Source of the DNA: Malacoraja senta
Lineage: Eukaryota
Reading direction: 5' to 3'
Assembly: GCA_038087875.1 (NCBI GenBank)
Contig: CM075987.1
Span: 24,120,001-24,184,000 of the forward strand
DNA length: 64,000 nt
Position 1 is the stretch's first letter, and each line of letters begins with the position of its first letter. Below are positions 631 through 52,721 of the stretch, piece by piece. The notes beneath the pieces are model-generated. The model ran no database searches and had not been told where the DNA came from. It saw only the letters and a program-made list of their open reading frames with translations. The translations under genes were made by a program, and so were the position numbers.

Positions 631-1657
631 CTAAGTTCGCCTCCTCTCTCCGACGAGAGTTCTGTAACATCCTCTCCTCAAGGTATTTCGCAGTCACTTC
701 CGTTTGAGCACTGGGCTTCATTCCCATTTCTCTCTTGCAATCAGATCACTGAAGATGACAGGAAAGAGGTCGGGTTCATCTAAAATGCACAAGTTTGGGG
801 TTTGATGAAATATTTTCCACACGCCTTTTGGGTACAAACTCTGACAGTACTCAAGAAGTTTGATGGCAAATGAAAAGAGCCTGTTTAATTAGCATCTAAT
901 CCACCATCTTGAAATTTATTCTCTCCACAAAGCTAGCAACGTTGATGGCTGTGTTTATAAGTTCATAGGTTCTAGGAGCAGAATTAGTCCATTCGGCCCA
1001 TCAAGTCTACTCCACCATTCAATTATGGCTGATCTATCTTTTCCTGTCAACTCCATTCTCCTGCCTTCTCCCCGTAACCCCTGACACCCGTACTAATCAT
1101 TGGTTTATGGCTGTTAGTAAGTATCTCAGTGAGACTACCAGCAGAAGGGGGGTTCACTAATAAAGGTGAGAGTTGGATTTATTCAGGAGGTCTCGCCAGG
1201 ATATAGGAGGAGTGGGTAAGCAGTGGAACAGTGATCAATGAACCACTCAGGGGAAAGACCAGAGGAAATAAACCAGTGCTTTTTAAAGAGACACAAGAAA
1301 CTGCAGATACTGTAATGTGATTGAAAAATCCCTCCCCGGATGCTGCCTAACCCGCTGAGTTCCTCCAGCATAGGACATAGAACACAGAACTGTACAGCAC
1401 AGAAACAGGCTCTTCAGCCCTCAATGTCTGTGCTGAACATGATGCGAAGGATGGCACGGTGGCGCAGCGGTTTAGTTGCTGCCTTACGGTGCTTGCAGCG
1501 CCAGAGACCCGGGTTCGATCCTGGCTACGGGTGCTTGTCTTTACGGAGTTTGTATGTTCTCCCCATGACCTGCGTGGATTCTCTCCGAGAACTTCGGTTT
1601 CCTCCCACACTCCAAAGACGTACAGATTTGTAGGTTAATTGGCTTGGTATTAAATGT

Positions 1658-1709
1658 GGGGTCAAGGTAAGAGCGTTCACTTCACAGCCCTGTTTCCACC
1701 AATCTTTCC
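1658..1709 (+). ncRNA. Minimal HDV-like (CPEB3-like) ribozyme candidate
   Basis: P1 GGGGTC/AGCCCT, P2 GGTAAGA/TCTTTCC, P3 GCG/CAC, L3 TTCACTT, GT, short linker, C-CAA joiner. Confidence 0.55.
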
Positions 1710-1832
1710 GCCACCACACACAAGCACAAGAAGCGACAAGACAGACACCATTGTATGCAGATGCCGAGAAGTGTGTTCATCTCCGGATGAACAACTTCTA
1801 ATCTTGTGTGTGTGGACTCGATAAGAAGAAGA
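1658..1832 (+). mobile_element. Short ribozyme-headed retroposon, family A copy 1
   Basis: Imperfect TSD TGGTATTAAATGT / TGGTACTAAAGT; ends in ATAAGAAGAAGA; second copy on minus strand at 27079-27260. Confidence 0.8.
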
Positions 1833-27078: not shown

Positions 27079-27260
27079 TCTTCTTCTTATCGAGTCCACA
27101 CACAAGATTAGAAGTAGTTCAGCCAGAGCTGAACACACTTCTCGGCATCTGCGTACAATGGTGTCTGTTTTGCGCTTCTTGTGCTTCTTGTGCGAGGTGG
27201 TGGAAAGATTGGTGGAAACAGGGCCGTGACGTGAACGCTCTTTCCTTGACCCCCCCCCCC
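27079..27260 (-). mobile_element. Short ribozyme-headed retroposon, family A copy 2
   Basis: Perfect 11-bp TSD CTGATCAATAT (27068-78, 27261-71); reverse-complement match to 1658-1832. Confidence 0.85.
27202..27253 (-). ncRNA. Minimal HDV-like (CPEB3-like) ribozyme candidate
   Basis: Minus strand GGGGTC AA GGAAAGA GCG TTCACGT CAC GGCCCT GT TTCCAC CAA TCTTTCC; P2 is a perfect 7 bp. Confidence 0.65.
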
Positions 27261-50985: not shown

Positions 50986-51863
50986 ATTTGGCGGCAATTG
51001 GGAGCAACCTTGCGTCCTTTTCATTCTGGTTTCCAAGTGCAGTGGCATTTTGCAGCGGCATTTTGCTGCGATGACAAAACGTTCATCCTGCTGGTCATGC
51101 ACTGGATGTCGCTTTGACACGGTAATACAAGGAACCGCAAATGCTGGAATTCTGAGTTAAAAACAGAACGTTAGAGCAATTCAGCAGGTCAGGCCACATC
51201 TGTGGAGGGAATGGACAGGTGAAGTTTCGGTTCGGGGTAGACAAAAATGCTGGAGAAACTCAGCGGGTGAGGCAGCATCTATGGAGCAAAGGAATAGGTG
51301 ACGTTTTGGGTCGAGACCCTTCTTCAGACTGATGTGGAGGTGGTGGGGGGGGGGGGGGGGGAAGAAGAAAGGAAGAGGCTTCAGGGTGTTTCTGCAAGGG
51401 ACCCGTTACAACCATCTCGGCAGGTAAGTGAAGAAGGGAAAATAAAATTACTGTGCAACTTAAAATTTTCAGGACTAGGAACGAGAGATTTCTGTATTTA
51501 ATGGTATCAAGGGGTATGGTGGAAAAAGGCAGCCCCATGGGTAAAGGAACAAATTAATTATTGCGGAACATGTTCGAGAGGCTGTGCCCATCTCCTCTCT
51601 TTGCATTCAGCTGTGAATTACCTGGACCGGTTGCTGTTTCAAGCACATGAATGGCTGTGGAAACCTCACTGGTAATAAACAGTACATTCAATTTGAAGCA
51701 ATCACTGTCCCAATGGATCATCAGAGTCCTTGGTTGAAGATGCGGGATATTTTAATATTTTTAGTTTAGTTTTTAGTTTAGTTTAGAGATGCAGTGGGGA
51801 AACAGGCCCTTCCCCCCACCGAGTCGGCAGCGACCAGCGATCCCCGCGCATTAACACCACCCT

Positions 51864-51932
51864 GGCCCCATAGCAGAAGCGTCCACGTCGCTGGGGGCTG
51901 GAAACTGGAAGTATCCCGAGCTAATTCTGCTA
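51864..51932 (+). ncRNA. HDV-like (CPEB3-like) self-cleaving ribozyme candidate
   Basis: P1 GGCCCC/GGGGCT with G1.U wobble, P2 TAGCAGAA/TTCTGCTA (8/8), P3 GCG/CGC, L3 TCCACGT, P1.1 CC/GG, P4 GGA-AGTA-TCC, J4/2 CTAA. Confidence 0.8.
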
Positions 51933-52060
51933 CCACCGTCATCTATTGCGACAAGTGATGGCTCCCGCATTGATTGTCGCCGGAAGTTTGCGTCCTTTTC
52001 TGGACGGACGATGACAGCGATGTCAACATTTGAAACATGGAAGATCGACACGGAAGAAGA
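51864..52060 (+). mobile_element. Short ribozyme-headed retroposon, family B
   Basis: TSD ACACCACCCT / ACTCCACCCT; ends in CGGAAGAAGA; inserted antisense in a V-SINE. Confidence 0.8.
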
Positions 52061-52721
52061 ACTCCACCCTACACACACACGAGGGACAATTTTACATTTA
52101 TACCCGTCCAATTAACCTACAAACCTGCACGTCTTTGGAGTGTGGGAGGAAACCGATGATCTCGGAGAAAACCCACGCAGGTCACGGGGGGGGGGAGCGT
52201 ACAAACTCCGTACAGACAGCACCCGTTGTCAGGATCGAACCCGGGTCTCTAGCTCTGTAAGGCAGTAGTTCTACCACTGCACCACCGTGCCGTACATCCC
52301 ATTTGTACTCAACTACACAATTATCACAGAAAGCAATAAACTTTTGAATCAGAGTTCTTGAATTTCCTTATCGTCTTGACGATGGAATTATGAGATTAGC
52401 AGATATTATAGTGTTGCCATATAAATCCTTAAACTTTGAAACCAGGCTAATATTTGAGAGCTTAACTATATGGCCTCAGCGGCATGTTGCAAATGATCCT
52501 CATTTCTAGTGAGCCTGTACGATTCCTGGACCAGCTGCATTTAGCTCGTTGCACATTGCAATGAATAAAAGAACGTTATTTAACATTTAAACATAAACTC
52601 AAAGAGCACCTCATCTTCCAACTTCCTCGCAAACATTATCAAAAGCAGAAAGTCTGAAATACTAATTATTTATGAGAGCTTTTAGATGTTTTAGATACCT
52701 TTTAAAACTTAAAAGTAGAAT

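Follow-up and report, generated by a model that had tools for sequence, protein, structure and literature searches.

Position 51,864 of a 64,000-nucleotide stretch of DNA (forward strand of contig CM075987.1 in assembly GCA_038087875.1, positions 24,120,001 to 24,184,000; hereafter the window) is the first base of one copy of a short retroposon family, which we call S. It is also the first base of a predicted self-cleaving ribozyme of the CPEB3 type, a member of the class that resembles the ribozyme of hepatitis delta virus (HDV). Modeling of the fold at the head of the element indicates that S very likely uses self-cleavage to set its own 5' end. Sequence comparison of its copies suggests that S is a young family of ~194 bp with about two thousand candidate copies in the source genome. 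A preliminary description of nucleotides 51864-51932 had drawn every element of the HDV fold there, including a short P4, at the exact 5' end of a ~200-bp retroposon, with the predicted cut at the edge of a target-site duplication. It had also stated a similarity to the mammalian CPEB3 ribozyme and the presence of HDV-like ribozymes at the 5' ends of retroelements, and had proposed to look for covariance-model matches, for copies that start at G1, and for covariation.

The sequence and coordinates of the segment were as given in that description, and the parts of the predicted ribozyme are as follows.

51864..51932, + strand: HDV-like (CPEB3-type) ribozyme domain, predicted cleavage 5' of G51864; evidence from Rfam RF00622, covariance model R1 and cross-family covariation
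51864..51869, + strand: 5' strand of P1, GGCCCC, pairing with 51894-51899
51871..51878, + strand: 5' strand of P2, TAGCAGAA, pairing with 51925-51932
51879-51881 and 51889-51891, + strand: P3, GCG and CGC, around the 7-nt loop L3, TCCACGT (51882-51888)
51892..51893, + strand: TG, a two-base insertion private to the window copy, which separates P3 from the 3' strand of P1
51894..51899, + strand: 3' strand of P1, GGGGCT, register fixed by the covariance model
51900..51901, + strand: GG of P1.1, able to pair with CC 51883-51884 of L3
51902..51920, + strand: linker at the expected place of P4, with no convincing helix
51921..51924, + strand: J4/2, CTAA, immediately preceding the 3' strand of P2; C51921 is the candidate catalytic residue
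51925..51932, + strand: 3' strand of P2, TTCTGCTA, completing a perfect 8-bp helix

A nested double pseudoknot can be drawn through these parts, with P1 and P2 crossing, P3 nested and P1.1 formed. We re-derived the core elements one by one, namely the 6-bp P1 closed by the wobble pair G51864.T51899, the 8-bp P2, the 3-bp P3, the P1.1 pairing between CC of L3 and GG, and the CTAA joiner with C51921, and to this extent the claim that every element is present held up. The predicted cleavage lies at the first base of P1, the G of the G.U wobble, and the genomic 5' ends of S fall on that same G. In an alignment of 60 sequences most columns of L3 were at least 90% conserved, as were the C and the fourth-position A of J4/2, and the third-position A was invariant. 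A 20-nt ribozyme core occurs once in the window against 0 occurrences expected.

Copies of S were sought in the 1.94-Gb source assembly with nucleotides 51864-52064 as query, which gave 2012 first-look candidates, and the best 40 of these were scored. All 40 were 92-93% identical to the window copy, and their similarity started at query base 1 in 38 cases and at base 2 in the other 2. When 30 S loci were aligned with 60-nt flanks, similarity began abruptly at GGCCCC and ended at ...GACACGAAAGAAGAAG, with duplicated target sites of variable sequence on both sides, directly adjoining GGCCCC. Since a full-length query favors full-length copies, we took a second sample with the last 85 nt of a near-consensus S copy, for which 1776 candidates were found, 40 scored, and 30 loci returned. 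All 40 scored matches were 98-100% identical over these 85 nt.

Among the 30 loci picked in this way by their 3' end, including two pairs that are mutual duplicates, the 5' start fell at base 1 in 20 loci, at base 2 in 4, at base 3 in 2, and at bases 4, 7 and 46 in one each. One further locus starts at G1 and carries an internal deletion, and in all 27 of the 30 start within bases 1-4. Similarity upstream of G1 was found in none of the 30. A crude script detected target-site duplications of 9-14 bp in 16 of 30 loci, and more were visible by eye. The variable duplications, the GAA-rich, simple-repeat tail and the lack of terminal repeats are those of a retroposon of the type without long terminal repeats, in line with the ~200-bp retroposon described at first, and the copies do start preferentially at G1. 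Every pair of P1, P2 and P3 together with L3, the GG and the C is kept in 14 of 49 distinct S loci.

Covariance models relate the domain to the CPEB3 family. The gathering cut-off of RF00622, the Rfam model of the CPEB3 ribozyme, is 35 bits, and a search of the window at Rfam gathering thresholds reported nothing. In sensitive mode RF00622 matches 51852-51931 with 27.7 bits (E = 3.2e-5), and this was the sole match at E <=10 among 4227 Rfam families within 51700-52300 (601 nt). Twenty of the 29 other S copies were submitted to the same model, and it matched 20 of 20, with 13 reaching 35 bits and the best scoring 40.6 bits; the shortfall of the window copy is explained by its private 2-nt insertion. 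Rfam also contains models of HDV and of several more ribozymes of this class. For the ribozymes of 20 further loci, no Rfam family besides RF00622 appeared at E <=1. The similarity to CPEB3 stated in the preliminary description is real at the level of the Rfam consensus, as the alignments from cmscan show. The RF00622 model stops one base before the eighth pair of P2, in which that description had claimed a compensatory C-G to U-A change. A second model, R1, was built from 30 non-S ribozymes (alignment A2) and contains only P1, P3 and five P4 pairs. Although built without any S sequence, R1 recovered 30 of 30 S loci at 20.7-41.4 bits, and when run on the whole window it scored the domain at 51864-51932 with 32.7 bits (E = 9e-7).

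The same type of ribozyme heads other families in this genome. RF00622 searched against the whole assembly returned 51 matches among 59 scored candidates, of which 39 were above the cut-off and the best scored 64.2 bits; the first-look stage had listed 102,231 candidates, a rough figure that should not be read as a copy number. The search gave matches in 0 of 14 control genomes. Thirty loci from the genome search sort into families A to E, and a further family, F, was met by chance in three loci, so that the genome holds at least six non-S families headed by a CPEB3-type ribozyme:

Family A, 12 loci: in nine of them similarity extends over 1.5 kb or more, at 93-98% identity
Family B, 3 loci: similarity common to all three extends over only ~120 nt
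Family C, 5 loci: old, 80-88% alike, with the 5' strand of P1 and the start of P4 as in the Rfam CPEB3 consensus
Family D, 4 loci: its own P2 (AGAAGGA/TCCTTCT) and a short P4
Family E, 6 loci: ~180 bp, no P4, duplications adjoining the first G, ending in ...GACTCGATAAGAAG
Family F, L010:3095-3149 (- strand), L016:860-914 (- strand) and L039:1849-1903 (+ strand): P4-less, found as second sites beside unrelated matches

A search for further copies of family C gave six candidates and only the five loci already known. Family A elements measure ~3.14 kb and have one frame, of 934 amino acids, that contains Exo_endo_phos (residues 33-171), Exo_endo_phos_2 and RVT_1 (492-736) domains. An atlas search with this protein placed it no more narrowly than Eukaryota, with Chordata the most frequent group. 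Over 3142 bp, two full copies share 98.2% identity, and both have 10-12-nt duplications adjoining the first ribozyme bases and end in ...GACACGAAAAGAAG followed by GAA repeats. The family A ribozyme is the one that scores 64.2 bits against RF00622. By its architecture, which agrees with the RTE pattern of one frame with an N-terminal AP-type endonuclease and a reverse transcriptase, a length of ~3.2 kb and a short 3' untranslated region, family A is an intact RTE-like long interspersed nuclear element (LINE). A terminal motif, GAC(A/T)CGA(A/T)AAGAAG, is common to S, A and E, which led us to think that an A-like enzyme copies S. In every family whose ends can be defined (S, A and E), the ribozyme sits at the first base.

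From family to family P1, P2, P3 and P4 differ by compensatory substitutions. Family F has P1 GGGGTGG/CCGCCCT, a P2 of its own, and P3 ACC/GGT in place of GCG/CGC, all fully compensated relative to the other families, and family E closes P1 with G-C instead of a wobble. P1 of S has six pairs. L3 of S reads TCC where the other families and the CPEB3 consensus have TTC, and two Gs follow P1 where the others have one, a two-sided change that would add a second G-C pair to P1.1. J4/2 is CTAA in S and B and CCAA in E; families A, C and D have CGAA.

Some features of these families were noticed in passing. Directly behind the 3' strand of P2, S (window 51932-51937), B, C, D and E have (A)CCAC(C) and the autonomous family A has AAACAC; the former may reflect common descent or act as a post-cleavage signal. 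In one copy of family A (L041:1574-1695, - strand) the complete ribozyme is preceded by four additional partial repeats, in tandem, of the first ~26 nt of the element; they span the 5' strand of P1 to the 3' strand of P3 and may have arisen when the reverse transcriptase slipped or switched templates at the RNA 5' end. R1 also found two further CPEB3-type ribozymes, of the P4-less family E, in the window itself, at 27201-27254 (- strand, 51.3 bits) and 1657-1710 (+ strand, 39.0 bits). With three ribozyme-headed elements in 64 kb, their genome-wide number is probably very large. At L020:2510-2645 a long near-perfect hairpin drew several unrelated microRNA models on both strands, far below their cut-offs, and is probably an inverted-repeat transposon and not a microRNA.

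Because differences within a family reflect decay after insertion, covariation had to be tested between families. R1 was searched against 60 loci to yield alignment A3, with 67 rows (63 distinct) from seven families. A MAFFT alignment (A1) was dropped: it set the 3' strand of P1 in S one column out of register, and the R1-guided A3 places this strand correctly. Standard pairs filled 92.0% of cells in A3, compared to 78.4% in shuffles (0 of 500 as high) and 33-50% with slid partners. Two-sided change was seen in 18 of 23 pairs (shuffle mean 13.2, 2 of 500 as high), and the covariation score was 0.339 against 0.147 in shuffles (0 of 500 as high). P2, which is not in the aligning model, was 95.5% paired with 6 of 7 pairs covarying, and L3, the G after P1, and the C and As of J4/2 were conserved throughout the families. 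The covariation that the preliminary description had proposed to look for is strong across the seven families of the source genome. All three of its sequence-based checks, namely the covariance-model match, the start at G1 and covariation, favored its reading.

These results bear on whether the domain could be a chance look-alike, in which a GC-rich stretch merely permits an HDV-like drawing. False drawings are common for HDV-like motifs, in which few bases are invariant, and a plain nested minimum free energy fold of the window domain was no better than shuffles (z = -0.26), a measure that is uninformative here because the fold is a pseudoknot. Set against this are the matches to Rfam and to R1, seven families with compensatory changes, and the first-base position in S, A and E, and we give a chance resemblance next to no credence.

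The mechanism that we favor would begin with transcription of S inside a longer host or read-through RNA, as suggested by the lack of a recognizable promoter in S. The first ~67 nt of S would fold into a 6-bp P1 closed by G1.U, a 7-8-bp P2, a 3-bp P3, a 2-bp P1.1 and the J4/2 C, and this fold would cut the transcript just 5' of G1. The RNA freed by the cut would have the first base of S as its exact 5' end. The endonuclease and reverse transcriptase of a putative RTE-like helper LINE would then recognize the common 3' motif and copy the freed RNA by target-primed reverse transcription, a process that would leave target-site duplications of 9-14 bp.

Several points weigh against this account. 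Transcription from a fixed start would likewise give a sharp common 5' end, so cleavage is not proved by the ends alone. The window copy scores below the RF00622 cut-off (27.7 against 35 bits), and its two inserted nucleotides lie where the other families have no spacer. The short P4 of the preliminary description did not survive: the 19-nt linker folds into a 3-bp hairpin only, at -1.2 kcal/mol, and 74 of 200 shuffles were at least as stable, compared to -6.9 kcal/mol (z = -9) for the corresponding segment of family A. We would rather describe S as nearly or wholly without P4, similar in this to families E and F. Apart from the ribozyme core and ~14 terminal bases, nothing in S resembles family A, and a search for a parent or helper LINE with the last 85 nt of S returned S copies only (30 of 30) and no LINE. 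The label RTE-like itself follows from the architecture of family A and not from a tree. As for the covariation, the model that guided A3 contains P1, P3 and P4, so the counts for those helices lean toward structure and only P2 is free of this bias; the column pair 1/37 is confounded, since column 1 is flanking DNA in S and E (21 unpaired cells); and the effective sample is about seven families, not 63 independent sequences.

The most serious competitor takes up the first of these points. The fold could be a relic inherited from a ribozyme-headed LINE, with the 5' end of S set by transcription starting at or near G1, for example from an internal promoter. The sharp 5' end of S fits a fixed start equally well, S lacks P4 and has six rather than seven P1 pairs, and the first 77 nt of L1Tc/NARTc are both promoter and ribozyme (PMC3383444), so the two roles can coexist. 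A polymerase III head would be one such promoter, and ARAGORN found 0 tRNA genes in 51600-52400 and Rfam no tRNA, 5S or 7SL match at E <=10 in 51700-52300, from which we conclude that S is not a polymerase III short interspersed nuclear element (SINE). S is also young, and its ribozyme helices are wholly intact in those 14 of 49 loci. Where S differs from its relatives it does so by two-sided changes that keep or improve pairing, in P1 and in the added second pair of P1.1, which argue that the fold was under selection within the S lineage. On this balance a relic with a fixed transcription start is improbable, and self-cleavage at G1 remains the explanation that we prefer for the family.

The window copy is another matter. 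Its extent and borders are:

51864..52059, + strand: one copy of S (~194-bp non-autonomous retroposon family), 3' boundary uncertain by 2 nt; sharp ends in the 30-locus alignment
51853..51863, + strand: upstream target-site duplication, AACACCACCCT, part of an older host SINE
52047..52059, + strand: 3' terminal motif, GACACGGAAGAAG (family S form GACACGAAAGAAGAAG)
52060..52070, + strand: downstream target-site duplication, AACTCCACCCT

The two duplications, AACACCACCCT and AACTCCACCCT, are identical at 10 of 11 positions, and the upstream one stops exactly one base before G51864, so the predicted cut does coincide with the edge of the duplication, as first described. We compared the window with contigs from four sequencing runs of four studies (four coded organisms), and contigs of all four runs covered the element region. 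A joint 51863->52073 was also present in contigs of all four runs and represents copies of the host SINE without the insert.

The S insert sits within this older and very abundant SINE, at window ~51750-52290, which has a (TTTAG)n-like end. Contig depth over the host SINE was 10-100x that over the S element in all four runs, and ARAGORN calls no tRNA in it. Our impression is that it resembles SINEs of cartilaginous fishes, and from its repeat landscape the source genome would lie outside the mammals.

The TG at 51892-51893, which the preliminary description overlooked, is missing in 28 of 29 other aligned S copies, and the remaining one (L013) has one extra base there. Contigs that omit TG made up ~38-80% of local depth in the four runs. 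No spacer separates P3 from P1 in the S consensus or in the other families, so in this feature it is the window copy and not the family that departs from the HDV-like pattern. The insertion probably harms the fold, and the window copy is probably a poor ribozyme or none today. At ~7% divergence from other S copies, which differ by only 1-2% over the last 85 nt, it is an older, more diverged, decayed member of S. Our confidence that this particular copy is active as a ribozyme is much lower than our confidence in the family.

The same data address the idea that the window copy is a working ribozyme that serves its host locus, for instance through cleavage of a host transcript spanning 51864. 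The copy does have all core elements, and the mammalian CPEB3 ribozyme demonstrates that such a sequence can persist in a host intron (PMC10274809). Its private insertion at the P3/P1 junction, its divergence relative to the other copies and its position within another SINE speak against such a role, which we consider very improbable. Self-cleavage as a 5' end-forming step of family S, with the window copy as a mutated and perhaps inactive member, accounts better for these features.

Ruminski et al. reportedly found in 2011 that HDV-like ribozymes lie at the 5' ends of RTE, R2, R4/Dong, Baggins and L1Tc/ingi elements. The general statement of the preliminary description on retroelement 5' ends is confirmed by PMC3774820 and PMC5786205, which place HDV-like ribozymes at the 5' ends of R2, R4, RTE and L1Tc elements, and R4, L1 and RTE ribozymes cut at the 5' junction (PMC3774820). 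Like these LINE ribozymes, the S ribozyme occupies the first bases of its element, has its predicted cut at the 5' junction and would release the element from a co-transcript. Family A shares with RTE its single endonuclease and reverse transcriptase frame and its length of ~3.1 kb. A P1 of 6 or 7 bp is usual in HDV-like ribozymes (PMC4908430, PMC3774820), and the ribozymes described here resemble those of R2 in having a P1 of 6-7 bp and a P4 that is variable or absent (PMC3774820). Unlike those LINE ribozymes, that of S is of the CPEB3 sequence type, and S is a ~194-bp non-coding element and not a LINE.

Non-autonomous LINE derivatives that carry ribozymes have been described as R2 SIDEs (PMC3414825), L1Tc NARTc (PMC3383444) and bipartite RTE, Ingi and R2 LINEs (PMC5786205). 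S is like them in being short and non-coding, with a LINE-type 5' ribozyme and 3' end, with target-site duplications, and with a LINE presumed to act in trans. In contrast to SIDEs and bipartite LINEs, S has no parent LINE with the same body among the sequences found, it is dispersed and not specific to ribosomal DNA, and its genome is most likely that of a vertebrate. With its lack of a convincing P4, and with none in E and F, the group also recalls the theta ribozymes, which are minimal HDV-like ribozymes without P4 (PMC10879173). Theta ribozymes are, however, bacterial and phage RNAs with other core sequences in other contexts (PMC10879173).

The closest resemblance is to the CPEB3 ribozyme, which is described as a highly conserved mammalian intronic ribozyme (PMC10274809, PMC8256844, bioRxiv 10.1101/2022.09.22.508989). 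Over the 26 consecutive positions that run from the end of P1, by way of J1/2, P2, P3 and L3, into the 3' strand of P1, S and the Rfam CPEB3 consensus agree at 24; in J4/2 together with the 3' strand of P2 they agree at 10 of 11, and the 7-bp core of P2 is identical on both strands. Unlike the CPEB3 ribozyme, a single conserved copy in the CPEB3 intron, S is multicopy, dispersed and located at the 5' end of a retroelement with target-site duplications. Its P1 has six pairs and not seven, its J4/2 is CTAA and not CGAA, and it is without P4. In P1.1, S would form two G-C pairs, compared to a G-C and a putative U-U pair in CPEB3 (bioRxiv 10.1101/2022.09.22.508989). The comparison suggests that the S ribozyme is a sequence relative of the CPEB3 ribozyme and not its orthologue.

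The available passages of PMC10274809 and bioRxiv 10.1101/2022.09.22.508989 name no source for the CPEB3 ribozyme. Our literature search, which did not extend to Repbase, Dfam or subscription journals, found no work that ties it to RTE, to other transposons or to non-mammalian vertebrates, and automatic Rfam-based genome annotations may already list these matches without comment. Helix sequences are free to differ among families, yet those of the P2 core of S and of the P1 5' strand and P4 start of C coincide exactly with the mammalian consensus, one family scores 64 bits against RF00622, and no other Rfam family competes; together these points argue for common descent. The simplest direction of transfer is from retroelement to host intron. 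We tentatively propose, with a confidence just short of even, that the CPEB3 type may be the 5'-processing ribozyme of an old RTE-like retrotransposon lineage and its short parasites, a lineage still young and abundant in the source genome, and that the mammalian CPEB3 copy may be the co-opted 5' end of one insertion.

The trimming of retroelement RNA to its exact 5' end by an HDV-like ribozyme is an established mechanism, to which S would add a new member. What appears to be new, by our literature search, is the CPEB3 sequence type as the 5' ribozyme of multicopy retroelements. The source genome shows a radiation of such elements: one LINE is intact, at least two families (S and E) measure ~180-195 bp, and four more ribozyme groups (B, C, D and F) are present. 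These families form a natural mutational series, in which P1 has 6 or 7 pairs, P1.1 has 1 or 2, P4 is long, short or absent, and J4/2 is CGAA, CTAA or CCAA. A retroelement source, if true, would make the origin of the CPEB3 ribozyme testable by comparative genomics.

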